Shown here piece by piece: positions 4,677 to 53,148 of a stretch of DNA of 64,000 nt. The notes beneath the pieces are model-generated. The model saw only the letters and a list, made by a program, of their open reading frames with translations, was not told where the DNA came from and searched no databases. Position 1 is the first letter of the stretch. Each line of letters opens with the position of its first letter. Source of the stretch: Deltaproteobacteria bacterium (GTDB lineage: Bacteria; Desulfobacterota; GWC2-55-46); NCBI GenBank assembly GCA_016234405.1, contig JACRCC010000032.1, positions 4,360 to 68,359 of the forward strand, given 5' to 3'. The translations under genes were made by a program, and so were the position numbers.

Positions 4677-6383
4677 CTACCCTTCCAACGCCTTCCTAAC
4701 CTCTCCCGCCGCGTCGTCCACCCTTACGAGCGTAACCTCTCCGCCTCTGCGTTTTTTTATCTCGACGAGTCCCTGTTTCAGATTCCTCTCGCCGATGGTT
4801 ACCCTCACCGGTATACCGATTAGGTCAGCGTCCTTAAACTTCACCCCTGCCCTGTCGTCGCGGTCGTCCATGAGAACTTCGAGGCCGCCATCCTTGAGCG
4901 CGGCATAGAGCGCCTCCGCGGCCTTCATGGTCCCCGCGTCCTTCACGTTCACAGGAAGCACCTCGCAATCAAATGGCGCAAGAGGCCGGGGCCAGATAAT
5001 CCCGAATTCGTCATGGTTCTGCTCGATGGAGGCCGCGGCGGTCCTGCCTATGCCGATGCCGTAGCAGCCCATGATAAAGGGACGGACTTTACCGGCCGGG
5101 TCCAAAAACGTCGCTTTCATGGCCTCCGAATATTTCGCGCCGAGCTTGAATATGTGCCCCACCTCTATCCCGCGCCTGATGGCAAGAGTCCCGTTAGCGC
5201 ACCTCGGACACCCGTCTCCGTTTACGACTGCCCTGATGTCGAAATACTCGGCCTTGAAATCCCGCGCAGGGTTTACGTTGGTAAGGTGCGCGTCCGCGGC
5301 GTTTGCGCCCGTTATTCCGTTGACGATTTGTCTTACGCTGTAATCGGCCGCTATCCTGCACTTGAGCCCCATTGGCCCTGCAAACCCGGTTGGCGCGCCT
5401 GTGGTCTTCGTAACGGTCTCGTCGGTTGCGAGCCTCACCCGCTCGGCGCCGAGCGCCCTCTTGAGCTTCATCTCGTTTATGTCGAAATTCCCCGCCACAA
5501 GCGCGGCGATAACACCCTTGTCCGTATCGTAGATGAGAGTCTTTATGAGGTTTTTGGGCGAAGTCTTTATAAAACCAGAAACCTCCTCAACCGACTTTTT
5601 CCCCGGCGTTGACACCCGCTCGATATTCTTTTCAACGCACGAATCCCGCGCAGCGGGCGCTGTCGCCCGTATCCCCGCCCTCTCGACATTGGCGGCGTAA
5701 GAGCAGGCGTTGCAAAAGGCAATCGCGTCTTCGCCCGTGTCGGCCATTACCATAAACTCGTGCGAAAAAGCCCCGCCGATGCTGCCGGTGTCGGCCTCGA
5801 CCGCCCTGAATTCCAGCCCGCACCTCTCGAAGATGCGCGAATACGTGTCAAACATGTTCTTGTATTCCCGCGCCGCGCACTCATCCGTCGCATGGAACGA
5901 ATAGGCGTCCTTCATGGTGAACTCCCTGCCCCTCATAAGCCCGAAACGCGGGCGTATCTCGTCCCTGAACTTCGTCTGTATCTGATAGAGGTTTAAGGGA
6001 AGTTCCTTGTATGAGCGCACAGCGCCCCTAACCATGTCGGTTATGACCTCTTCGTGAGTGGGGGCAAGGCAAAATTCCCTGTCGTGCCTGTCTTTCACGC
6101 GCAAAAGCTCTTTTCCGTAGGCCTCCCACCGTCCGCTCTCCTTCCACAATTCGGAAGGCACGACAACGGGCATGACCACCTCTTGCGCGCCCGCGGCGTT
6201 CATCTCGGCGCGAACGATGCCTTCCACCTTTGCGATGACGCGCGCGCCCAAAGGCAGCAGGTTGTAAATCCCTGCCGCGACTTTCCTTATCATCCCGGAG
6301 CGCATCATCAGCTTCTGGCTTATGACGTCCGCGTCAGAGGGGTCTTCCTTTAGCGTGGGCAGCAGCATCTTTGAAAAGCGCAT
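4677..6383 (-). CDS. proS: Proline--tRNA ligase (bacterial type with editing domain)
   Basis: ProRS class II motifs. The ORF-track start at 6413 is a GTG. The ATG at 6383 (MRFSKMLLPTLKE) has AAGGAG 7 nt upstream. Confidence 0.9.
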   Translation of the reverse strand: MRFSKMLLPTLKEDPSDADVISQKLMMRSGMIRKVAAGIYNLLPLGARVIAKVEGIVRAEMNAAGAQEVVMPVVVPSELWKESGRWEAYGKELLRVKDRHDREFCLAPTHEEVITDMVRGAVRSYKELPLNLYQIQTKFRDEIRPRFGLMRGREFTMKDAYSFHATDECAAREYKNMFDTYSRIFERCGLEFRAVEADTGSIGGAFSHEFMVMADTGEDAIAFCNACSYAANVERAGIRATAPAARDSCVEKNIERVSTPGKKSVEEVSGFIKTSPKNLIKTLIYDTDKGVIAALVAGNFDINEMKLKRALGAERVRLATDETVTKTTGAPTGFAGPMGLKCRIAADYSVRQIVNGITGANAADAHLTNVNPARDFKAEYFDIRAVVNGDGCPRCANGTLAIRRGIEVGHIFKLGAKYSEAMKATFLDPAGKVRPFIMGCYGIGIGRTAAASIEQNHDEFGIIWPRPLAPFDCEVLPVNVKDAGTMKAAEALYAALKDGGLEVLMDDRDDRAGVKFKDADLIGIPVRVTIGERNLKQGLVEIKKRRGGEVTLVRVDDAAGEVRKALEG

Positions 6384-11340: not shown

Positions 11341-13286
11341 GCGAATATTATCCAGATAAAGGGCCGGTTGAGTTCAAGCGGCGCGCAACCGTCGCGGTCG
11401 TTATAGCATGGGCGGCCTTTTCGCTCTTAGCCGCGCGCCTTTGGCACCTGCAGGCCAAAGAGGGCGGCTTCTACACCGACCTGTCGCAAAGCAACAGCAT
11501 ACGTCTCATAAAGGCCGTAGCCCCAAGGGGTATCATATTCGACAGAAACGGCGTCAAGGTGGCCGACAACAGGCCAAGCTACGACCTTTTCATAATCCCT
11601 GAGGACGTATTGAACTGGGACATGACCCGCGCCATGTTGAAGGGTATGGCCGGCCTCGGCGCGGACGAGATAGACGAAAAGATTGACAATGCCAAGGGCA
11701 GGCCGCCGTTTCAGATGATAAGGCTCAAAGAAGACCTCCCGTGGGACGAGGCCGTAAAGATAGAGAGCTACAAATACGAGATACCCGGACTCATACTCGA
11801 CGTAACCCCCAAGAGGGCGTATATCTACGGACCGGCATTCGCCCACCTTATAGGACACCTCGGCGAGATAAACGAAAAAGAACTAAAGGGTCTCAAGAAA
11901 AAAGGCGCCGGATACTCGCTCGGCGACATGATAGGCAAATACGGGCTTGAGAAGGCGCGCGAAAAGGAGCTTCGCGGCGCGGACGGCGGAAAAAAAATCG
12001 AGGTTGACGCGCGCGGCAGAAAGATAAAACTCATCAAAGGCGCCCCTCCTTATCCGGGGTTGGAGATAAGACTCACGGTTGACTTGAAGACCCAGCTGTC
12101 CGCTTACGCCGCAATGAAAGACATGGCCGGGGCAGCTGTCGCCATAGAGCCGTCCACCGGAAGGATACTTGCGATGGTAAGTTCTCCGGCATTCGACCCT
12201 AACGCCCTTTCAACCGGCATATCGAGTGCGGATTGGATAAAGCTCGTTGAAAACCCCCTCGACATCCTCAACAACAGGGCCATACAGGGACTCTATCCGC
12301 CGGCCTCGACGTTCAAACCCATACACGCCGCGGCCGCGCTCGAGGAAAAAGTCATAACGCCGGCGACCGAGATATTCTCCGGCCCGTCGTTGTGGTTCGC
12401 AAAACGCGAATACCGCGACTGGAAAGAAGGCGGGCACGGCATAATTAAAGTCCACAAGGCCATCGTCGAGTCCTCCGATACATTTTTCTATCAGGTCGGC
12501 CTAAAACTCGGCGTTGAGGGGCTCTCAATATACGCCAAGAACTTCGGTCTCGGCGCGAAGACGGGCATAGAACTTCCCAACGAAAAGAACGGTCTTGTGC
12601 CCTCCTCCGCGTGGAAGCTGAAGGCCACCGGCACGCGGTGGTACGAGGGAGAGACTATATCGTTAGCCGTGGGTCAGGGCTTCATGCTCGCCACCCCGCT
12701 CCAACTCGCAAACGCATACGCGGCCATAGCCAACGGAGGCACGCTCTACCTTCCGCAGACCGTCGAGGACGTGCGCGCCCCGGACGGCGCGGTGTTGGAG
12801 AGGTTTTCCCCAAAGGCGCTTTCAAGATTGAAGATATCCGCAAAAAATCTCGAAGTCGTGAAAGAGGCGTTAACAGGCGTTACGCACGAAGAGGGCGGCA
12901 CGGCCCTTTTTCTCAAGGCGAGCAACCTGAAGATTGCCGGAAAGACCGGCACCGCTCAGGTGACAAAGCTCAGGGAGCGGGTGAAAAACATCGAAAAGAC
13001 GGCGTATAAATACAGGGACCACGCATGGTTTGCCGGGTACGCCCCCTATGACGACCCTAAGATAGCCGTAGTGGTGATAGTGGAGCATGGGGGCTTCGGC
13101 GCGAGCGCCGCGGCGCCGGTTGCAAACGCGATATTCAAGGCATACCTCGGCGAGGCGGCGCCGAACGCCGGACAGACGCCTCCATCGCAACCCTCGACCA
13201 TACAGGCTGCGGCCCAGAAACAAACGGAGACGTATGATACCCTCTCCCCAAGGGGAGAGGGCTGGGTGAGGGGGATAAATGATTGA
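11337..13286 (+). CDS. mrdA: Penicillin-binding protein 2 (elongasome transpeptidase)
   Basis: PBP dimerisation domain plus transpeptidase motifs STFK, SSD, KTGTA. GTG start overlapping the mreD stop. Confidence 0.9.
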   Translation: MSEYYPDKGPVEFKRRATVAVVIAWAAFSLLAARLWHLQAKEGGFYTDLSQSNSIRLIKAVAPRGIIFDRNGVKVADNRPSYDLFIIPEDVLNWDMTRAMLKGMAGLGADEIDEKIDNAKGRPPFQMIRLKEDLPWDEAVKIESYKYEIPGLILDVTPKRAYIYGPAFAHLIGHLGEINEKELKGLKKKGAGYSLGDMIGKYGLEKAREKELRGADGGKKIEVDARGRKIKLIKGAPPYPGLEIRLTVDLKTQLSAYAAMKDMAGAAVAIEPSTGRILAMVSSPAFDPNALSTGISSADWIKLVENPLDILNNRAIQGLYPPASTFKPIHAAAALEEKVITPATEIFSGPSLWFAKREYRDWKEGGHGIIKVHKAIVESSDTFFYQVGLKLGVEGLSIYAKNFGLGAKTGIELPNEKNGLVPSSAWKLKATGTRWYEGETISLAVGQGFMLATPLQLANAYAAIANGGTLYLPQTVEDVRAPDGAVLERFSPKALSRLKISAKNLEVVKEALTGVTHEEGGTALFLKASNLKIAGKTGTAQVTKLRERVKNIEKTAYKYRDHAWFAGYAPYDDPKIAVVVIVEHGGFGASAAAPVANAIFKAYLGEAAPNAGQTPPSQPSTIQAAAQKQTETYDTLSPRGEGWVRGIND

Positions 13287-14370
13287 CAGACGACTTTTTA
13301 CGCATTTCGACTGGTTCACCTTCTCTCTCACGGCTGCGCTTACCGCGATTGGATTGGCGAGCGTCTACAGCGCAACGCACGCCCAAATGCCTGCGATATA
13401 CAAAAAAGAAGTCTACTGGATTATCATAGGCTTGGCAGGCCTTGCAGCCGCCGTAACAATCAACTACCTGCTCTTGGAGAGGCTTGCCTACGCGCTCTGG
13501 GGCGGCGCGGTAATTCTCCTCGTCTCCGTCCTCTTCATCGGAAAGACCACCGCAGGCGCGCGGCGTTGGCTCAACCTCGGTCTTTTTTCGCTGCAACCGT
13601 CGGAACTCGCCAAACTCGCGCTTATTATCGCGCTCGCCAAATACTTCACGTCAAGGCCCGTGCCGTCAAAAGGTTTGGCGCTTAAAGACCTCGCCTTGCC
13701 GGCGGTATTTCTGCTCGTGCCGTTTCTCCTTGTCGTAAAGCAGCCCGACCTCGGCACCGCCATAATACTCTGGCTAATATTCTGGACCATGACGCTCATG
13801 GTCAGGGTACGAACCCGGACGCTTGTCGGCATCGTCGCGGTCTTTATGGCGCTCACGCCCATAGCATGGAAGATGCTCAAGGGATACCAAAAGGCGCGGC
13901 TTATGAGCTTTCTCGACCCCGCCAAAGACCCTCTTGGCACCGGATACCACGTCATGCAATCGAAAATTGCCATAGGCTCGGGCGGAATTTTCGGAAAGGG
14001 CTTTACCAACGGCACGCAGGGCAACCTCATGTTTCTGCCTGAGCATCACACGGACTTCATATTCGCCGTCTACGCCGAGGAGTGGGGGCTTGCCGGTTCA
14101 ATGGTTCTTTTGTCGCTTTTTCTGATTCTCATCCTCAACGGCTTTAACGCCGCGAACGATGCAAAGGACAGGTTCGGCTTTTTGGTGGCCTTCGGAATGA
14201 CGACGATGCTTTTCTGGCACGTCGCCATAAACCTCGGCATGGTCTCAGGGATGCTCCCGGTCGTCGGGGTGCCCCTGCCGTTTATCAGCTACGGCGGGTC
14301 GTTCCTCGTTACCGCGATGATTGCCGCCGGGCTTATAATAAACATCAAGATGCGGGGTTTCATGTTTTAG
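13279..14370 (+). CDS. rodA: Peptidoglycan glycosyltransferase RodA (SEDS family)
   Basis: FtsW/RodA/SpoVE signature. Overlaps mrdA. Confidence 0.9.
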   Translation: MIDRRLFTHFDWFTFSLTAALTAIGLASVYSATHAQMPAIYKKEVYWIIIGLAGLAAAVTINYLLLERLAYALWGGAVILLVSVLFIGKTTAGARRWLNLGLFSLQPSELAKLALIIALAKYFTSRPVPSKGLALKDLALPAVFLLVPFLLVVKQPDLGTAIILWLIFWTMTLMVRVRTRTLVGIVAVFMALTPIAWKMLKGYQKARLMSFLDPAKDPLGTGYHVMQSKIAIGSGGIFGKGFTNGTQGNLMFLPEHHTDFIFAVYAEEWGLAGSMVLLSLFLILILNGFNAANDAKDRFGFLVAFGMTTMLFWHVAINLGMVSGMLPVVGVPLPFISYGGSFLVTAMIAAGLIINIKMRGFMF

Positions 14371-14383
14371 CGGAGACTAACGG

Positions 14384-14854
14384 GTGAAAAAACTCATTAC
14401 CCTCTTTCTCGCTGAGGGCGCATATTTGGGGCGCGTGCGCGCCATGCCCGGGACGCTTGGCTCCCTATGGGGAATTCCACTGGCGTGGGCGGCCTCTTTT
14501 TTGGGGATTGCAGGGCAGGCGGCGTTTACCGTCCTTGTCTGCGTTGCTGCAATTATAATCTCCGGCGCCGCGGCAAAGACGCTTGGCGAAAAAGACCCTG
14601 AGCAAATCGTCATAGACGAGGCCGCCGGATTTTTGGCCGCGGTTTTCCTTATCCCGTTTACGCCGTTTAACTTAATATTGGCCTTTATTCTTTTCAGGAT
14701 TTTTGATATTGTGAAACCTTGGCCGGTTCGCCAAATTGACAAGAATATCAAGGGAGGCGCCGGGATAGTGCTCGATGACGTTGCCGCCGGGATCTTTGCC
14801 AATATATGCGTTCAGGCCGTAATCAGGATAGCGCCAATGTCATGGCGGGGATGA
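14384..14854 (+). CDS. pgpA: Phosphatidylglycerophosphatase A
   Basis: PgpA motifs 'GTLGSLWG', 'IVIDEAAG', 'FRIFDIVKPWP'. GTG start. Confidence 0.8.
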   Translation: MKKLITLFLAEGAYLGRVRAMPGTLGSLWGIPLAWAASFLGIAGQAAFTVLVCVAAIIISGAAAKTLGEKDPEQIVIDEAAGFLAAVFLIPFTPFNLILAFILFRIFDIVKPWPVRQIDKNIKGGAGIVLDDVAAGIFANICVQAVIRIAPMSWRG

Positions 14855-15357
14855 CCGCAAAGCAAGCCTCCGGCGCGTTTAAGGCAACGGCCCTCGGAGC
14901 GTCTCTAAAAAGAAATAATCTAACGCTCGCCGCGGCTGAGTCGTGCACCGGCGGGTTTCTCTCTCACCTGTTCACGAATATCCCCGGAAGCTCCGATTGG
15001 TTTAAGGGGGGCGTCGTTGCATACGATAACGCCGTAAAGACAAAGATCCTCGGCGTCAAGGCCTCCACTATCGAGAGGCACGGCGCAGTTTCGGAGGAAA
15101 CCGCCGTTGAGATGGCGCGAGGGATAAAAAAGAAACTCGATGCGGACGTCGGCGCGGCAATAACCGGAATTGCCGGCCCCGGCAAGGGCATACCGGGTAA
15201 GCCCGTCGGCACGGTTTACATCTGCGTTGCTTCCGCGCGCAAAAAGACCGTAAAAAAATTCCAATTCAAAGGCGCGCGTGTTAAGATAAAAACGCTCTCA
15301 GCCTTGAAGGCCGTAGAGATGCTTGAAAGGTTCGTCTTACGCGGCGCGTTGAAATAA
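14842..15357 (+). CDS. pncC: CinA C-terminal domain protein / NMN deamidase PncC-like
   Basis: 'LTLAAAESCTGG...SHL...PGSS..F.GGVV.Y' matches the CinA C-terminal domain. Alternative starts at 14806 and 14851; the latter makes an ATGA overlap with pgpA. Confidence 0.7.
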   Translation: MAGMTAKQASGAFKATALGASLKRNNLTLAAAESCTGGFLSHLFTNIPGSSDWFKGGVVAYDNAVKTKILGVKASTIERHGAVSEETAVEMARGIKKKLDADVGAAITGIAGPGKGIPGKPVGTVYICVASARKKTVKKFQFKGARVKIKTLSALKAVEMLERFVLRGALK

Positions 15358-15394
15358 ACCAGTTCGTGAAACAAGAGGCCGGGAAAAAACATAA

Positions 15395-15967
15395 TTGGAC
15401 AAAATAAGGTGCTTCATAGCCATCGCCATACCGGAAGAGTTGAGGGAAAAACTCCGCCGGATTAAGACCGCGCTTGACGCTGGGTATCGCGGGGTTTCAT
15501 GGACCAAGCCTGAAAACATCCACCTGACGCTAAAATTTCTCGCGGAGATTGACGCGGCGTCCGTGGAGCCGGCAGCCAAGGCCATTAATGAAGCAGCCGT
15601 CTTTGCCGCGCCTTTTACGCTTACGGCGGAAGGCATCGGGGGTTTTCCCTCGCTCAAAGGCCCTCGGGTCATCTGGGCCGGAATAAAAGACCACCCCGGC
15701 CTGACGGAACTGCGCGGAAAGATAGAAGACGGACTCGCCGCAATAGGTTTCGAGAGGGATGCGCGCAGGTTTCACCCGCATCTTACGCTTTGCAGGATAA
15801 AATCCGTTGACGACTCGGTCTCTCTCGGACGGGCCGCGCAGGGGTTCGGCAGCGGAGCGACCCATGAGATAAACGTCGCGGAGATTATTTTATACAAGAG
15901 CGTTTTAAAACCGGAAGGCTCCGAGCATACGGCGCTGAAAAGAATAACCCTCGGTCCGCGCAGGTAA
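15395..15967 (+). CDS. thpR: RNA 2',3'-cyclic phosphodiesterase (LigT/ThpR, 2H family)
   Basis: Two H-x-T-x motifs, 'HLTLKF' and 'HLTLCR'. TTG start. Confidence 0.8.
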   Translation: MDKIRCFIAIAIPEELREKLRRIKTALDAGYRGVSWTKPENIHLTLKFLAEIDAASVEPAAKAINEAAVFAAPFTLTAEGIGGFPSLKGPRVIWAGIKDHPGLTELRGKIEDGLAAIGFERDARRFHPHLTLCRIKSVDDSVSLGRAAQGFGSGATHEINVAEIILYKSVLKPEGSEHTALKRITLGPRR

Positions 15968-15983
15968 ACTTACGCCGGTTTTT

Positions 15984-16098
15984 TGTTGCGCCGTCAGGAG
16001 AGTTTCTTGGCAAATAAAGTTTCAAGTGTGGTAGCATGAAGGCGGTCGGTCAAACCTCTTGTTGCGCCGTAAGGAGTTTCCTCCCGACGGCAAATAAA
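15984..16098 (+). repeat. Two imperfect direct repeats of about 36-40 bp (ttgttgcgccgtMaggag...ggcaaataaa) upstream of the islet's small ORF
   Basis: Copies at 15984-16019 and 16059-16098, read directly from the sequence. Confidence 0.5.
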
Positions 16099-16132
16099 TT
16101 TGCTGAAATGAGGCGAAAGGAGGGGGTGAATT

Positions 16133-16369
16133 ATGAAGTGGAAAGATATTGTCATACAATATAGAGACGAATGGGTGCTCATAGAAGCAAAAAAAGTAGA
16201 TGAAAAATTCAATTTAAAAGACGGCGAAGTCATTTCACATTCAAAGGATAAATCCGAGATATACCAGCAGCTTCTAAAATTGAAAAAGAAAAAGAAGATA
16301 TACATAGAATACACGGGAAAGATACCCGAAGAGCTTGCCGTGGTGCTCTATTATCATGAAACGGTATAA
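16133..16369 (+). CDS. Small lysine-rich hypothetical protein in an AT-rich islet
   Basis: Strong RBS (AAAGGAGGGGG, 8 nt spacing). GC content is far below the flanks. Loosely reminiscent of DUF5678-type small proteins (weak). Confidence 0.5.
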   Translation: MKWKDIVIQYRDEWVLIEAKKVDEKFNLKDGEVISHSKDKSEIYQQLLKLKKKKKIYIEYTGKIPEELAVVLYYHETV

Positions 16370-16742
16370 ACTCGAAAGGCACGGTTGTCTTTTGATGACA
16401 AGGGCGTTTGTAGAGGGGGCAAACGGCAAGGCATATCCAAAGCTCCTGCTTGATACAGGTTCCGCATATACCATCCTTTCACAGGAGATCCTTGAGTTTA
16501 TCGGTTCCAGTCCGGCAACAGCTGCAAAAAGACAGCGCATAATTACAGGCAGTGGATATGAGATTGTCCCCGTTGTTTCGGTAAAACGGTTCAACTGTTT
16601 TGGAAAAGCATTGAAGGGGTTTCCGATACTCGGCCATACATTGCCGTTTGGCGTATATGTGGACGGACTGCTCGGCATGGATTTTTTGAGCAGTTTTGAT
16701 ATTGAGATAAAGACGCAAAATGGGGGAATAGTCGTGAGGTAA
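16356..16742 (+). CDS. Retropepsin-like (clan AA) aspartic protease domain protein
   Basis: 'LLLDTGSAYTIL' is the D-T/S-G-A catalytic motif of retroviral-type aspartyl proteases. ATGA overlap with the upstream small ORF. Confidence 0.65.
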   Translation: MKRYKLERHGCLLMTRAFVEGANGKAYPKLLLDTGSAYTILSQEILEFIGSSPATAAKRQRIITGSGYEIVPVVSVKRFNCFGKALKGFPILGHTLPFGVYVDGLLGMDFLSSFDIEIKTQNGGIVVR

Positions 16743-16760
16743 TGAGCTTGCTTAAGATTT

Positions 16761-17162
16761 ATGGGGGCGCATTATGAAAAGGATATTTGGATATTTTTTA
16801 ATGCGGAGGTAACGGTTGTCCTTGACGCATGTTTTTCAGGCGCGGGCGGCAGGAGCGTGCTTGCAAAAGGCGCAAGGCCTCTGGTGATGACAACGGATGC
16901 GTCGGTCATTTCATCTAACATGGCTGTGCTTTCGGCGACGCAGGGCGCGCAGATTTCTTCATCCTCTCCTGAAAAGGGGCATGGGATATTCACCTGCTGC
17001 TTTCTCAAGGCATTAAAAGAAGGCAAGAAAAACATCGCCGATATTTACGAATACATAAAACCGCTGGTCGAGGACGAGGCAAAACAAATCAACGTCCAAC
17101 AATCCCCGAGCATAAGCCCGGATGCGGAGAAGATAAGGGGAAGGTTTACATTGAGGCGGTAA
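16761..17162 (+). pseudogene. N-terminally truncated caspase-like (peptidase C14) domain fragment
   Basis: 'IWIFFNAEVTVVLDACFSGAGG' matches the catalytic-Cys region of bacterial caspases/metacaspases ('lfiflDaChSG'). The His-containing N-terminal half is absent and no upstream ORF supplies it. Confidence 0.4.
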
Positions 17163-17323
17163 GATTGAGAGGCCTTTCTCGTTACCAAGCCTGCCCCCGC
17201 TTCAAGCACGCGAGGGCAGTCTTGGTAACGCAATTGCTTATGAAGTTCCGGCTTCATCAATAAAAAGAAGACGGTGGGCGGCGCCGCCTTGACAAGGACA
17301 TAGAATCCGCAAAGACAAAAGAT

Positions 17324-17335
17324 GAACTTACGTTA
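17324..17335 (+). promoter_or_regulatory. Candidate Cheo-type LexA box (GAAC-N4-GTTA) upstream of recA
   Basis: 'GAACTTACGTTA' lies about 27 nt upstream of the recA ATG. One mismatch to GAAC-N4-GTTC. Confidence 0.25.
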
Positions 17336-17361
17336 GTTTTTAAATCTCAACGGGAGGTCTT

Positions 17362-50338: not shown

Positions 50339-50683
50339 ATGGACAGCAGGATACTGGACATACTCGTTGACATCAAGGCGGATGTCGGCGGACTCAAGAA
50401 GGGACTGGCCGACATCAAGGCCGACGTCGCCGATATCAAAATGGATATCGCCGACATCAAGGCCGACGTGGCTGAGCTTAAGGGCGACGTGGCTGAGCTT
50501 AAGGCCGACGTGGCTGAGCTTAAGGCCGATGTAGCTGAGCTTAAGGCCGATGTGGCTGAGCTAAAAGACCGCGTGGGCAGGCTCGAAGACGACATGGCTG
50601 AGGTTAAGTCCGAGGTCAGGACCATATCTCACGCGCTCCTCGATACGTCCAAGGAGGTTGCGAGGCTCAAGGGGAGCGGGTAA
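50339..50683 (+). CDS. Coiled-coil protein with tandem heptad repeats (DIKADVA/ELKADVA)
   Basis: Five tandem 21-bp units (50462-50566) encode AELKADV heptads. No TM segment and no recognisable family. Confidence 0.5.
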   Translation: MDSRILDILVDIKADVGGLKKGLADIKADVADIKMDIADIKADVAELKGDVAELKADVAELKADVAELKADVAELKDRVGRLEDDMAEVKSEVRTISHALLDTSKEVARLKGSG

Positions 50684-50878: not shown

Positions 50879-51292
50879 CTATCTTCCCATAAAGAACCCT
50901 TTTGCCTTCGCGGCAAATTCCCGGATATCCGGAATCTTCTTTTTGACGGTTACGATGTTTTGCCAGTTCATTTTCAGATACTGATGTATCGTTTCATTCC
51001 TATGTTTCGTCAAGGGCGCAATCTTTAAAACGATTTCTCCAAGGATGTCGTGACAAGCCAATACCGTATCCTTATAGGTATCAGGGATTGAGAGACCTTT
51101 CTCCTTCAGACATTCTTCGGCAATGTCTACAATACATAGGATAGTGTCGTTCAGTGTTTTATCAAGTATATTTCTGCTGTCACGGTCCGCAAAATACCTG
51201 TCTCTGCCAATCTTTTCGATTTTAGGGGAGAAATATATGATTGTCTCTTCAAGAAATGCGATGAGCCTTTCTGCTTTGATTTCAGGCTTCAT
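50879..51292 (-). CDS. hepT: HepT-like (DUF86) RNase toxin, type VII toxin-antitoxin
   Basis: 'HRNETIHQYLKMNWQNI' matches the R-x4-HxY DUF86 motif. Confidence 0.7.
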   Translation of the reverse strand: MKPEIKAERLIAFLEETIIYFSPKIEKIGRDRYFADRDSRNILDKTLNDTILCIVDIAEECLKEKGLSIPDTYKDTVLACHDILGEIVLKIAPLTKHRNETIHQYLKMNWQNIVTVKKKIPDIREFAAKAKGFFMGR

Positions 51293-51677
51293 GCGCCGCC
51301 TCTCTCCTGAACCTTATACCTTCCGATTCATGCAAAACCCGGTCGCTCACGTCATATAATTTGTCTTTATCCGGTTCTATCAAAGGTATGCCTTTTAGCG
51401 CCTCCTGAACGACAAACGGCGATTCATCTTCGTCATCTAAAAAAAGTATCTCAATATCTCTGTCGCTGCTCATCAATATCCTGTCAATGGCCTCGATTCG
51501 AGCGTCATCGTCTTTACTGCTCAGGTAAACCGCAATGTCTATGTCGGAGCGCAAATGCGAGCCGCCTTTGGCGTAAGAACCGTATAGATAGGCCATCAGG
51601 AGCATCCCTTCTCCTTGCATCCCTTCCAAGACTTCTTTTATCTTTTGTATTTCCCTTTTATCAGAGATTATATTCAT
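51282..51677 (-). CDS. mntA: MntA-like nucleotidyltransferase antitoxin
   Basis: 'YGSYAKGGSHLRSDIDIAV' matches the GS-x10-DxD minimal nucleotidyltransferase motif. Overlaps the hepT start. An alternative start lies at 51701. Confidence 0.7.
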   Translation of the reverse strand: MNIISDKREIQKIKEVLEGMQGEGMLLMAYLYGSYAKGGSHLRSDIDIAVYLSSKDDDARIEAIDRILMSSDRDIEILFLDDEDESPFVVQEALKGIPLIEPDKDKLYDVSDRVLHESEGIRFRREAAHEA

Positions 51678-51785
51678 GAATGGAAAATAGCATATAGGCA
51701 TAAATATTACAAGCAGCGGCGTTTGACCGGTATTGATTATGGAACATTGCCGCGCTCACAATCACGGCGCAATCCCGCCCGCCCA

Positions 51786-51856
51786 CCCTTCAAAACAGCC
51801 TCTCTATCGCCTCTTTGACCGTCGTAACGCCGGCGAGTTTCATCCGGCCTGACGGC
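51786..51856. repeat. 71-bp direct-repeat copy 2, forming the intact 3' end of radA
   Basis: Identical to 50791-50861. Encodes the RadA C-terminus ...AGVTTVKEAIERLF. Confidence 0.85.
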
Positions 51857-53148
51857 TTCAACCCTTTTATATTGTCCTTTGGAAGGATGCACCTGATAAA
51901 ACCGAGTTTTTCCGCCTCCCTCACCCTCTGCTCCACGTGGCTTACCCCCCTCACCTCTCCGGCAAGGCCAACCTCTCCGAAGACGACCGTCTTGGCGTCA
52001 ACGGGTTTGTCCAAAAAATTAGACGCTAAGGAAGCCAAGACCCCCATGTCAACCGCTGGTTCTTCAAGCCTCATGCCGCCGGCGACCTTTATGAATATGT
52101 CGTGGTTGGCCAGGCTCAAACCCGCCTTTTTCTCGAGGACAGCGGCTATGAGCATCACCTTGTTGTAATCCACACCCGAGACCGTCCTTCGCGGAACGCC
52201 GAACAGCGTCGGGCAGACCAGCGATTGCACCTCGACGAGTATTGTGCGGCTCCCTTCCAGCGATGATACGACGGCTGAGCCGGAGGCCCCTTCCGGGCGC
52301 TCGGATAAAAACATCTCGGACGGGTTCGTAACCTCTTTAAGACCGCTGTCTTTCATCTCAAAGACGCCTATCTCCATCACTGAGCCGTAGCGGTTTTTCA
52401 CTGCGCGCAAAATCCTGAAGGCGTGCCCCCTCTCGCCCTCGAAATACAAAACCGTGTCCACCATGTGCTCGAGCACCTTTGGACCCGCGATGGCGCCTTC
52501 TTTGGTGACGTGCCCCACGAGAAAAAGCGGGGCGTCCGCGGTCTTTGCGCTCGTTATGAGCTGCATGGCGGATTCCCTCACCTGCCCGATGCTGCCCGGA
52601 GACGAGTCAAATTCCGAGGTATGGACGGTCTGTATGGAATCAATCACGACTACGCCTGGGTTGAACTCTTTTATTGACGAGAGTATGGCCTCAACCGAGG
52701 TCTCAGGATATACGAGTAGATTTTCCGAGCCTACGCCGAGTCTCTCGGCGCGAAGCCTAATCTGCCTGAGCGATTCCTCGCCCGTAACGTAGAGCACACG
52801 GCCTCCACCGGATGCAAACGCGCCCATGGCCTGCAAAAGGAGCGTGGATTTACCGATGCCCGGGTCTCCGCCGATTAAAACCGCGCTCCCGGCCACCATG
52901 CCTCCGCCGAGCACCCTGTCGAATTCGATCAAACCGGTCGAGACCCGCGCCGGGCCTGCGATTGAAATGCCCGATACCGGCATGGGACGAGCCGCGCCTT
53001 CGCGCGATACGGCCCTCCTCTTTTTATCGTCTATCACGCGCTCTTCGGCAAAGGTATTCCACCCGTTGCATTCGGCGCATCTGCCGAGCCATTTGTGCGA
53101 GGACGCGCCGCAGGACTGGCACAGATATATTGTCCGGGTCTTGGCCAT
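51790..53148 (-). CDS. radA: DNA repair protein RadA/Sms
   Basis: N-terminal Zn-finger 'CQSCGASSHKWLGRCAECNGW', Walker A 'GDPGIGKST', Lon-like C-terminal domain. Confidence 0.9.
   Translation of the reverse strand: MAKTRTIYLCQSCGASSHKWLGRCAECNGWNTFAEERVIDDKKRRAVSREGAARPMPVSGISIAGPARVSTGLIEFDRVLGGGMVAGSAVLIGGDPGIGKSTLLLQAMGAFASGGGRVLYVTGEESLRQIRLRAERLGVGSENLLVYPETSVEAILSSIKEFNPGVVVIDSIQTVHTSEFDSSPGSIGQVRESAMQLITSAKTADAPLFLVGHVTKEGAIAGPKVLEHMVDTVLYFEGERGHAFRILRAVKNRYGSVMEIGVFEMKDSGLKEVTNPSEMFLSERPEGASGSAVVSSLEGSRTILVEVQSLVCPTLFGVPRRTVSGVDYNKVMLIAAVLEKKAGLSLANHDIFIKVAGGMRLEEPAVDMGVLASLASNFLDKPVDAKTVVFGEVGLAGEVRGVSHVEQRVREAEKLGFIRCILPKDNIKGLKPSGRMKLAGVTTVKEAIERLF

Follow-up and report, generated by a model that had tools for sequence, protein, structure and literature searches.

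Background

Retropepsin-like proteases are widespread in bacteria, and roles have been assigned to only a few of them (APRc, RimB and Rlo). APRc is a membrane-anchored enzyme. The accessible parts of the corresponding papers present APRc of Rickettsia conorii as a characterised retropepsin-like protease (PMC4140852), link RimB of Pseudomonas fluorescens to ribosomal protein modification within the RimABK complex (PMC11957791) and link the Rlo proteases of P. aeruginosa to osmotic stress tolerance (PMC11957051). In those parts, none of the three is said to share a mobile two-gene cassette with a partner of the DUF5678 type. PDC-M08 is a PADLOC phage-defence candidate (cassette CAS_00054, FAM_03167>>FAM_00414), a two-family cassette with 381 occurrences that was found embedded in BREX/DISARM/RM systems and was predicted by guilt-by-embedding; the 145 PDC systems of the source paper are all predicted candidates (Payne et al., bioRxiv 10.1101/2024.01.29.577857). 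Our literature search found no paper on DUF5678 or retropepsin toxin-antitoxin (TA) pairs.

Here we analyse an islet of three open reading frames, ORF1 to ORF3, lying between thpR and recA in a 64-kb stretch of bacterial DNA (the window, 64,000 nucleotides, whose numbering is used throughout). Its first two genes resemble PDC-M08 in having a small gene first (A) and the gene of a ~125-aa protein second (B), adjacent and co-directional. In contrast with the setting from which PDC-M08 was proposed, they are not embedded in or beside a defence system. Judged by its model matches, the pair is a further example of this already predicted candidate and not a new kind of system. We regard as probable that the islet consists of a live, mobile, TA-like or defence-like two-gene protease module accompanied by a dead passenger, an ankyrin-caspase (Ank-C14) gene, both inserted between thpR and recA.

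Results and discussion

A low-GC insertion between thpR and recA

The genes around the module in the window are rodA, pgpA, cinA, thpR, recA, pilT and recX, and no defence system adjoining or enclosing the module was found among them. The gap between thpR and recA measures 1,394 nt. In 11 distant loci (including L007, L008, L012, L014, L015, L025, L043, L045, L056 and L057, with contig labels such as Desulfobacterales, Nitrospina, Planctomycetia and Thermotogota) the corresponding spacers were estimated at about -19 to 236 nt, with nothing in between. The segment ~15984-17341 is a 1.36-kb insertion in this otherwise tight and widely conserved junction, and it splits the cinA-thpR-recA operon. 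The first-pass annotation had named, as a finding that would speak against it, the same three genes in the same context at normal GC in all relatives; the empty thpR-recA spacer of the other phyla decides this point in its favour. This empty site is deduced from distant phyla because no close host relative was found. When genome and metagenome contigs were scanned with thpR for a close relative without the islet, the best matches reached 44% and 43% identity, so that no true empty site was obtained, although the distant loci still gave the spacing argument.

The sharp drop in GC content noted earlier between thpR and recA was confirmed, with 0.39-0.46 over 16050-16800 against 0.55-0.60 in the flanks. 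The 638-nt ORF1/ORF2 region has a GC of 0.422 (z = -4.05) and is essentially the lowest-GC stretch of the 64-kb window, an equally low value being reached in 1 of 61,263 windows outside the islet. Codon usage agrees, GC3 being 0.42 and 0.47 for ORF1 and ORF2 versus 0.59-0.75 in neighbouring genes. In the related locus L033, the pair likewise lies ~9 GC points below its own locus. The insert is also bracketed by a 22-nt imperfect direct repeat (Table 1), whose left and right copies are identical at 17 of 22 positions; no equally good match between the two boundary zones arose in 1000 shuffles. By its low GC, its low GC3, its position and this bracketing repeat, the insert looks foreign. No recombinase is present in the islet. 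A plasmid, phage or viral origin of the module was considered and rejected, as the plasmid, phage and viral-contig collections searched gave no matches. This absence, the lack of a recombinase and the window neighbourhood free of defence genes weigh against a mobile defence module.

Table 1 Features of the thpR-recA insert, in window coordinates
Feature	Position	Strand	Remark
Bracketing 22-nt imperfect direct repeat, left copy AGGTAAACTTACGCCGGTTTTT	15962..15983	+	overlaps thpR stop codon
Direct repeat in front of the module, copy A (TTGTTGCGCCGTCAGGAG...GGCAAATAAAGTT)	15983..16022	+	
Direct repeat in front of the module, copy B, with small hairpin (GCCGTAAGGAG-TTTC-CTCCCGACGGC)	16059..16101	+	
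ORF1, 78 aa, DUF5678-like, PADLOC PDC-M08A-like	16133-16369	+	
ORF2, 128 aa, single-lobe retropepsin-like (clan AA) aspartic protease	16356-16742	+	ATG 16356
Relic 5' end of Ank-C14 lipoprotein gene, leader TTAAGATTT	16752..16802	+	aligned with L005 and L001 leaders
Mechanical ORF3	16761-17162	+	starts at fortuitous ATG 16761
Last 119 codons of that Ank-C14 gene (AEVTVVLDACFSGAGG...RFTLRR*)	16803..17162	+	pseudogene fragment
GC-rich hairpin, 21-nt arms, 9-nt loop, no T-tract	17180..17230	+	18 nt after ORF3 stop
Bracketing 22-nt direct repeat, right copy AGATGAACTTACGTTAGTTTTT	17320..17341	+	~10 nt upstream of recA RBS
recA RBS GGGAGG	17351-17356	+	

Two direct repeats had been described in front of the module. 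They exist, but they do not belong to the conserved module. Copies A and B are imperfect, matching at 17 of 18 positions in an 18-nt core and at 12 of 13 in a 13-nt tail, with a 3-4-nt indel between core and tail. The core pattern, searched with up to 3 mismatches, occurs in the 64-kb window only in these two copies, against a chance expectation of 0.08. L001, the closest relative, is homologous only from 16106 on, downstream of both repeats, and no conservation of the upstream regions was detected across 8 loci.

Downstream of ORF3, the segment 17163-17262 folds at -43.7 kcal/mol (z = -6.4; equally stable in 0 of 200 shuffles) around the only strong inverted repeat in the window. This hairpin has no second copy in the window and no Rfam match, and it may serve to end or to stabilise the transcript. 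A genome-wide repeat of the REP/MITE kind was rejected, the upstream repeats and the hairpin each being unique in 64 kb. An integron cassette was likewise rejected for the window: judged by eye, the hairpin has a 5' GTT and a 3' AAC, the reverse of attC, and there is no integrase. Elsewhere, the loci L027-L030 consist of same-strand arrays of small modules with variable content and a recurrent intergenic ACGTCCCC motif, which suggested integron cassettes. In the non-coding parts of the insert, Rfam gave only a meaningless sub-threshold lncRNA match, and neither a sigma-70-like promoter nor a + strand terminator was found. Two minus-strand ORFs (15994-16314 and 16274-16678) were discarded; they are low in complexity and mirror the Lys-rich, AT-rich genes of the sense strand, whose frames are those under purifying selection.

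ORF2, a retropepsin-like aspartic protease

The earlier identification of ORF2 as a retropepsin with a D-T-G-S catalytic motif was borne out by the profile searches. ORF2 scores 36.2 bits against PF13975 (cut-off 28.2) and 33.5 bits against PF13650 (cut-off 24.3). Its scores against NCBIfam TIGR02281 and TIGR03698 are far below the cut-offs, placing it outside both subfamilies. Among 30 homologues, D33-T34-G35-S36 is invariant, as are G104, L105, M108, D109 and F110, with L106 and G107 nearly so (G104-L-L-G-M-D-F). The predicted fold agrees: an AF2 model (pLDDT 86.7) retrieved Rickettsia APRc (5c9f) as its top Foldseek match (TM 0.77, E = 8e-7), followed at E <= 1e-3 by the XMRV, HIV, SIV and FIV proteases and the RVP domain of Ddi1. 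By domain and by predicted fold, ORF2 is solidly assigned as a bona fide single-lobe retropepsin-like aspartic protease. It shares with APRc, RimB and Rlo the single-lobe clan AA fold, the DTG-type loop and the hydrophobic-hydrophobic-Gly motif, but its identity to the characterised retropepsin-like proteases is only 17-19%. A reading of its sequence revealed no visible N-terminal hydrophobic segment, signal peptide or membrane segment, unlike the Rlo proteases of P. aeruginosa, which are secreted according to the accessible part of their description (PMC11957051).

ORF1, the small partner protein

ORF1 had been described as a lysine-rich small protein with a strong ribosome-binding site. It does contain 15 Lys in 78 aa and is preceded by a strong Shine-Dalgarno sequence (AGGAGG at 16118-16123, 9 nt before the ATG), but Lys-richness is not a family trait, the pI of family members ranging from 4.7 to 9.5. 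The proposed DUF5678 relationship (Pfam PF18929) holds for 20 of the 22 family members at E <= 0.01, with a best value of 2.9e-7, whereas ORF1 itself falls just below the cut-off (22.1 bits against 23.2, E = 1.4e-4) and may be counted as a marginal, divergent member. The PDC-M08A model matches ORF1 with E = 2.7e-7 over model positions 1-69 of 86, and it matches 16 of 17 family members. Two motifs, HSKDK and EYTGKIP..LAVVL, are invariant.

No structural match and no recognised antitoxin fold were found for ORF1. Residues 1-42 gave a weak, sub-threshold AbrB-like signal, with E = 0.07-0.28 against PDB profiles; hhalign paired ORF1 with the N-terminal part of the AbrB-family regulator of 5itj at a probability of 61% and 39% identity over 41 columns. 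These values hint weakly at an antitoxin-like architecture.

A conserved, mobile gene pair

The first 14 nt of ORF2, which is in the +1 frame, are also the last 14 of ORF1 (16356-16369). This corrects the 4-nt ATGA overlap given by the first-pass annotation; the 14-nt overlap is common to most relatives, and one of 4 nt is found in L033. The suggestion that the two genes form a module is well supported. Searching the neighbourhoods of the pair, we found the two genes adjacent, overlapping and in the same order in L001, L027-30, L031/32, L033, L034, L062 and L063/64, so that they form an inseparable, translationally coupled unit across nine unrelated genomic contexts. Their paired identities to the window proteins drop in step from locus to locus (90/88, 65/78, 61/69, 58/66 and 51/63%). 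Compared with L001, ORF1 has a dN/dS of 0.08; that of ORF2 is 0.079, and values of 0.08 for both genes indicate strong purifying selection. A gag-pro-like frameshift fusion of ORF1 and ORF2 was rejected: ORF2 keeps its own conserved ATG in every relative, and no ORF1-ORF2 fusion protein exists among 787 family representatives.

Lying side by side on one strand, the two genes match both PDC-M08 component HMMs, with A preceding B. All four PDC-M08B models match ORF2, the best of them at E = 7e-13 over positions 23-120 of its 127, and 30 of 30 family members match. The PDC-M08 matches being moderate, the window pair belongs to a divergent branch, which is known only from uncultivated Nitrospirota/Deltaproteobacteria-type MAGs and from metagenomes.

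The neighbourhoods of the pair are diverse. Some relatives lie in TA-rich islands with PIN, HicA, PemK, HEPN/MNT, bAvd or GIY-YIG genes; others lie in polysaccharide clusters, beside an integrase and an IS91-type transposase, or, in L063, among housekeeping genes only. No BREX, DISARM or RM system was found near the pair in any locus examined. The pair has the layout of a type II TA system, that is, small co-directional coupled genes that are inherited together and show a patchy, mobile distribution. As in MazEF/VapBC modules with AbrB-type antitoxins, the upstream gene is small and runs into a second gene of slightly greater length, the pair is mobile with a GC below that of its host, and it occurs singly or in TA islands; the sub-threshold AbrB-like N-terminus of ORF1 may be a further likeness. 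The difference lies in the downstream protein, which is predicted to be an aspartic protease and not an RNase, a kinase or a gyrase poison.

The pair could instead be a housekeeping regulator-protease or substrate-protease pair, ORF1 being for example a dedicated substrate, chaperone or adaptor that the retropepsin would process to tune a cellular function. Its location among housekeeping genes both here and in L063 is what such a role would predict, ORF1 has no recognised antitoxin fold, and the characterised bacterial retropepsin-like proteases are, in the accessible parts of their descriptions, physiological enzymes and not toxins (PMC11957791, PMC11957051, PMC4140852). Against such a role, the pair is patchily distributed, its neighbours change from each of the nine loci to the next and often are TA islands or mobile-element genes, its GC is below that of the host, it is inserted in a conserved thpR-recA junction, and it matches a cassette embedded in BREX/DISARM/RM systems. 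We consider this explanation unlikely.

ORF3, the remnant of an ankyrin-caspase gene

ORF3 was confirmed as a C-terminal caspase fragment. It matches the Peptidase_C14 profile over positions 121-224 of 233 only and keeps the Cys motif DACFSG (VVLDACFSGAGG). Its protein shares 81% identity with the final 118 residues (374-491) of the 491-aa Ank-C14 protein in L001, a member of the Ank-fused bacterial caspase homologues (Peptidase_C14, orthocaspase/metacaspase-like). In contrast with these homologues, ORF3 has no signal-peptide body, no ankyrin repeats and no catalytic His, and its native start is out of frame. As reported earlier, no His-bearing half lies upstream: neither ORF3 nor any other frame of the window encodes the His motif, which reads YYSGHG in homologues, and the 64 kb contain no other caspase or ankyrin sequence. 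The catalytic His-Cys dyad is not united in one polypeptide, and no intact reading frame runs from the native caspase start.

The description of ORF3 as a beheaded gene is right in that only the C-terminal part is still coding, but the head is not entirely missing. A ribosome-binding site (GGGGG, 16763-16767), the native ATG at 16774 and about 9 signal-peptide codons (MKRIFGYFL...) survive, pointing to an internal deletion. This relic aligns with the leaders and starts of Ank-C14 and C14 genes in L005 (3873 and 6118) and L001 (4197, 6408 and 8213); against L005 3873-3901 about 24 of 29 positions are identical, as counted by eye. The ATG at 16774 opens a frame of 12 codons with its stop at 16810-16812, and the C-terminal part lies in a different frame, the out-of-frame junction being at ~16800. 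The start placed earlier about 20 aa before the catalytic Cys is that of the mechanical ORF3 and an accident of its ATG, the native start being in another frame. Aligned in this way, the remnant has lost ~1.1 kb, roughly codons 10-371 with the ankyrin repeats and the catalytic His, by an out-of-frame deletion. On its sequence it is a pseudogene that should be unable to make a protease, and the "caspase family protein" call of the public record at this place refers to this pseudogene remnant. The dN/dS of the fragment is ~0.08, as in intact paralogues, with dS saturated; relaxed selection was not retained as a signature, since this value neither supports nor excludes decay and fits a recent deletion.

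Mis-assembly or a minority haplotype might also account for the gutted gene: the MAG contig would have followed a wrong or rare path in a repeat-rich graph, and the real genome would hold a full-length Ank-C14 gene after the pair. A Logan contig (L061, SRR12113407), from an independent assembly of the same population, covers window positions 12133-16798 at 99.94% and breaks off at 16798, 4 nt short of the inferred junction, as expected from a graph branch. For the recA side, exact-protein look-ups of pilT and recA gave no Logan contig. Near-identical Ank-C14 paralogues, a classic cause of mis-joins, do exist in relatives, and the absence of decay in the fragment (dN/dS about 0.08) would also suit this explanation. 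Against it, a de Bruijn join requires reads that span the junction k-mers, the stretch 16790-16810 shares no long repeat, a database of 5.8 billion proteins holds no full-length protein with a near-identical C-terminus (best non-self match 82%), and the rest of the 64-kb window is free of other C14 or Ank sequence. We judge an artefact or a minority haplotype to be rather improbable; the junction at ~16800 should be treated as a site of assembly or population heterogeneity.

Finally, a single protease cascade, in which the pair would control or process the caspase-like protease and the window copy would have decayed, is suggested by the L001 pair lying inside a caspase-family gene array with a C14 gene 20 nt later, by the relic start 31 nt after ORF2 in the window and by a DUF5678 gene inside the Ank-C14 array of L005, but it is very improbable given that 7 of the 9 pair contexts have no caspase gene nearby, that lipoprotein signal peptides with LAAC/LAGC lipoboxes are found on the Ank-C14 proteins and none is visible in ORF2, which would place them in different compartments, that the pair is under purifying selection here despite the dead caspase gene, and that the L005 DUF5678 gene is not closely related to ORF1 and precedes a UPF0150/HicB-like gene instead of a retropepsin.

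A possible mode of action

Returning to the live two-gene module with a dead passenger, which we favour, its effector would be ORF2, acting as a cytoplasmic single-lobe retropepsin-like protease. Like all such enzymes it would have to homodimerise, bringing together two Asp-Thr-Gly loops. ORF2 would be made by translational coupling from one mRNA with ORF1, and ORF1 would serve as antidote or regulator, binding ORF2 and holding the protease inactive; the invariant EYTGKIP..LAVVL segment at the C-terminus of ORF1 would be the most likely site of binding. The N-terminal part of ORF1 may in addition bind DNA and autoregulate the operon. Should ORF1 synthesis stop under stress, upon phage takeover or after loss of the element, ORF2 would be freed and could cleave cellular or phage proteins. 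The pair would then work by the logic of type II toxin-antitoxin or abortive-infection systems, with ORF2 as the putative toxin, ORF1 as its putative antidote and a possible role against phages.

A more specific proposal is put forward only tentatively: the pair might be the first TA or abortive-infection system with a clan AA protease as its toxin, kept in check by ORF1 with its AbrB-like N-terminus and its invariant hydrophobic C-terminal strand (EYTGKIP..LAVVL). This strand would then either fill the cleft for the substrate or obstruct the N/C-terminal beta-sheet that retropepsins use for dimerisation.

Conclusions

If this specific proposal were true, a mobile prokaryotic cassette would carry a natural protein inhibitor of retropepsin dimerisation. 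More generally, should the pair be a protease-based TA or anti-phage module, aspartic proteases would constitute a new effector class in bacterial immunity; ORF1 would be a small protein that naturally regulates a protease of the retroviral type, and ORF2 a mobile prokaryotic relative for comparison with the retroviral enzyme.

An insertion in the thpR-recA junction

In the window thpR and recA are separated by 1,394 nt in place of a short spacer. The sharp GC drop that the first-pass annotation had seen between the two genes is confirmed: GC falls from 0.55-0.60 to 0.39-0.46 across 16050-16800, and the 638 nt holding ORF1 (the small partner) and ORF2 (the protease) are the lowest-GC stretch in the 64-kb window (GC 0.422, z = -4.05). 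The GC3 values of ORF1 and ORF2 are 0.42 and 0.47, against 0.59-0.75 for rodA, pgpA, cinA, thpR, recA, pilT and recX.

Features of the islet and of the MNT-HEPN locus (window positions)
Feature	Position	Strand	Description
thpR	15395-15967		Pfam identification
22-nt imperfect direct repeat, left copy	15962-15983		spans the thpR stop
ORF1	16133-16369	+	78 aa; strong SD AGGAGG at 16118-16123
ORF2	16356-16742	+	128 aa from ATG at 16356
ORF3	16761-17162	+	133 aa
Hairpin	17180-17230		21-bp stem (21-nt arms); between caspase remnant and recA upstream region
22-nt imperfect direct repeat, right copy	17320-17341		~10 nt before recA RBS
recA	17362/17365-18396		Pfam identification
HepT-like HEPN RNase	50879-51292	-	PF01934, E = 1.5e-7
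MntA-like nucleotidyltransferase	51282-51701	-	PF18765, E = 1e-12

Searching with thpR retrieved no close relative of the host (identity at most 44%). In 11 distant thpR loci (including L007, L008, L012, L014, L015, L025, L043, L045, L056 and L057), recA directly follows thpR, without any gene in between and at a spacing estimated as -19 to 236 nt, and cinA is sometimes found upstream. The labels among these contigs include Desulfobacterales, Nitrospina, Planctomycetia and Thermotogota, which implies that the (cinA-)thpR-recA arrangement is widely conserved. The first-pass annotation had set as its refuting case that all relatives carry the same three genes in the same context at normal GC; the outcome in these 11 loci favours an islet. 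The two 22-nt repeats that bracket it match at 17 of 22 positions, a value equalled by 0 of 1000 shuffles between the two boundary zones, and excising one copy with all that lies between would leave a spacer of ~36 nt, as in relatives. The islet is thus an insertion into the thpR-recA junction. No recombinase was found within it.

The imperfect direct repeats at 15983-16022 and 16059-16101, previously placed in front of the module, are confirmed, and the window has no further copy of them. They do not belong to the conserved module, whose homology begins only at 16106, downstream of both. No promoter or significant fold was detected in them; they may be an operator, a terminator relic or an insertion scar. 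At the other end of the islet, the hairpin stands out by its stability (-43.7 kcal/mol for 17163-17262, z = -6.4). It is also unique in the window and has no T-tract and no Rfam match.

A retropepsin-type protease coupled to a small partner

ORF2 exceeds the curated Pfam cut-offs of both PF13975 and PF13650. In an alignment of 30 homologues its D33-T-G-S36 loop is invariant and its G104-L-L-G-M-D-F hallmark invariant or nearly so. The AlphaFold model (pLDDT 86.7) is structurally closest to APRc, a retropepsin-like protease from Rickettsia conorii (5c9f, TM 0.77); next come the proteases of XMRV, HIV, SIV and FIV, together with the RVP domain of Ddi1. Taken together, the Pfam scores, conserved motifs and model matches identify ORF2 as a true aspartic protease of clan AA with a single lobe, in agreement with the first-pass call. 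Proteases of this kind must dimerise for activity.

The two genes were also said to form a two-gene module, overlapping by ATGA. The module is supported, and the overlap has to be corrected to 14 nt (16356-16369). At every retrieved locus (L001, L027-30, L031/32, L033, L034, L062 and L063/64) the two genes lie side by side in a constant order and overlap, by 14 nt in most and by 4 nt in L033. Its neighbours vary: an array of ankyrin-caspase genes in L001, the closest relative; a same-strand array of PIN, HicA, PemK, bAvd and GIY-YIG modules, differing in content among samples, in L027-30; HEPN/nucleotidyltransferase genes in L031; polysaccharide-export clusters in L033 and L034; a tyrosine integrase and an IS91-type transposase in L062; and plain housekeeping genes in L063. 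The identities of ORF1 and ORF2 to their homologues drop in parallel from locus to locus, and dN/dS against L001 is ~0.08 for each. DNA homology to L001 (84.5%) is confined to 16106-16743, from RBS to stop codon, and no conservation of upstream non-coding regions was found among eight loci. These observations show that the small protein and an intact protease of the retropepsin type form a unit that is live, mobile and translationally coupled.

The small-partner family comprises 787 representative clusters at E <= 1e-3, nearly all of stand-alone proteins of 70-110 aa. None of the ten longer members searched carries a protease domain, and no member turned up in the plasmid, phage and viral-contig collections searched.

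In PADLOC-DB, ORF1 matches PDC-M08A (E = 2.7e-7) and ORF2 all 4 PDC-M08B models (best E = 7e-13); 16 of the 17 relatives of ORF1 and all 30 of ORF2 behave likewise. PDC-M08 is the two-family cassette CAS_00054, with 381 occurrences, and one of 145 computationally assigned 'phage defence candidates', a status it owes to the finding of such genes inside BREX, DISARM or type I RM loci (Payne et al., bioRxiv 10.1101/2024.01.29.577857). A literature search on DUF5678, PDC-M08 and retropepsin toxin-antitoxin pairs found no publication. These profile matches place the pair in a predicted candidate family, as a new and divergent member; the locus is not new in kind.

Several relatives show further arrangements. 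In L033, a high-GC locus, the pair (4777-5387) lies between two 49-nt direct repeats (4707-4764 and 5419-5485) of 9-nt units, 80% identical and 703 nt apart, which echo the 22-nt repeat of the window. The L027-L030 arrays (~2000-9500 in L027) consist of small same-strand two-gene modules (PemK, DUF7718-DUF5647, bAvd, GIY-YIG, the retropepsin pair, AF2212-PIN, HicA, DUF433-DUF5615) separated by a recurrent intergenic motif, ..ACGTCCCC.., with content differing between samples; such a layout resembles a cassette array, although the stretch examined showed no integrase. In L005 (8205-8748), a different DUF5678 protein of 98 aa (PF18929, E = 7.6e-8) directly follows a PIN gene and overlaps a 93-aa ORF downstream, whose UPF0150/HicB-like signal is weak; thus DUF5678 proteins also pair with non-retropepsin partners.

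A caspase-family pseudogene

The match of ORF3 to the Peptidase_C14 profile is confined to positions 121-224 of 233. In sequence, ORF3 shares 81% identity with residues 374-491 of an L001 protein (491 aa) that combines a C14 domain with ankyrin repeats and a lipoprotein signal peptide. It keeps the catalytic Cys motif DACFSGAGG and lacks the His motif (YYSGHG in homologues), and the 64 kb hold no other caspase- or ankyrin-like sequence. The Cys motif without its His half had been described correctly; 'beheaded' does not apply, since the native start survives out of frame. Homology to the ankyrin-C14 genes begins at 16803 (AEVTVVLD), and 16752-16802 aligns with the leader, RBS, start and first codons of ankyrin-C14 or C14 genes in L005 and L001 (TTAAGATTT, GG.GG, ATG AAA AGG ATA TT). 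The native ATG at 16774 encodes MKRIFGYFLMRR and terminates at 16810-16812, in a different frame from the C-terminal caspase part. ORF3 owes its 133-aa frame solely to an ATG at 16761 that lacks its own SD and chances to fall in the frame of the C-terminal part. The caspase ORF is a pseudogene, most simply explained by an internal, out-of-frame deletion of ~1.1 kb. The fragment still looks healthy (dN/dS ~0.08, dS saturated), which fits a deletion that is recent compared with the time since the fragment and its homologues diverged.

An assembly artefact at the junction is less likely. In its favour, L061 (Logan contig SRR12113407_939226, run SRR12113407), an independent assembly of the same population, reproduces 12133-16798 at 99.94% and ends 4 nt before the inferred deletion junction. 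This coincidence points to an assembly-graph branch, suggesting population (strain) heterogeneity or, less likely, a wrong join.

In relatives, L001 4197-9718 and L005 2900-12900 (the latter apparently frameshift-ridden, probably a long-read assembly) carry caspase-like lipoprotein genes with ankyrin repeats in arrays. These genes are paralogues whose C-terminal halves are nearly identical (dN 0.013 between the two L001 copies), and toxin-antitoxin-like modules are scattered among them (retropepsin pair, PIN, DUF3368, DUF5678). A truncated 170-aa copy in L002 (504-2290) abuts an IS with a DDE_Tnp_1 transposase, and several short homologues come from very long contigs, for instance the 114-aa P0180 from one of 397 kb. 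Fragments of this caspase family arise repeatedly, by different routes.

A second low-GC pair in the window

The second-lowest-GC kilobase of the window (50879-51701, GC 0.466) holds overlapping nucleotidyltransferase and HEPN genes, by their Pfam matches a predicted MNT-HEPN toxin-antitoxin pair of the classic kind. The gene immediately upstream of it is radA (51790-53148); each low-GC two-gene islet of the window therefore adjoins a DNA-repair gene. Beside the MNT-HEPN pair, a 114-aa ORF (50339-50683, +) is built of ADVAELK-type heptad repeats (coiled coil) and has weak LPP/DivIC-type Pfam matches.

Possible function of the pair

We consider the combination of module, pseudogene and insertion rather probable. 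For a toxin-antitoxin or defence role of the pair we put the chances at about even. ORF1, made first and in step with ORF2, would bind the protease and hold it inactive, probably through its invariant C-terminal EYTGKIP..LAVVL segment; loss of the ORF1 supply would free the ORF2 dimer to cleave host or phage proteins, a logic that would be that of type II toxin-antitoxin or abortive infection systems. Such specific inhibition of ORF2 by ORF1 is a tentative proposal, on the unlikely side. Alternatively, by analogy with the RimB or Rlo enzymes, the two proteins could be a physiological regulator-protease pair. A three-gene protease cascade including the caspase fits poorly, as 7 of 9 pair contexts have no caspases and the predicted compartments of pair and caspase differ. 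The family behind the pair would make an attractive and cheap experimental target.
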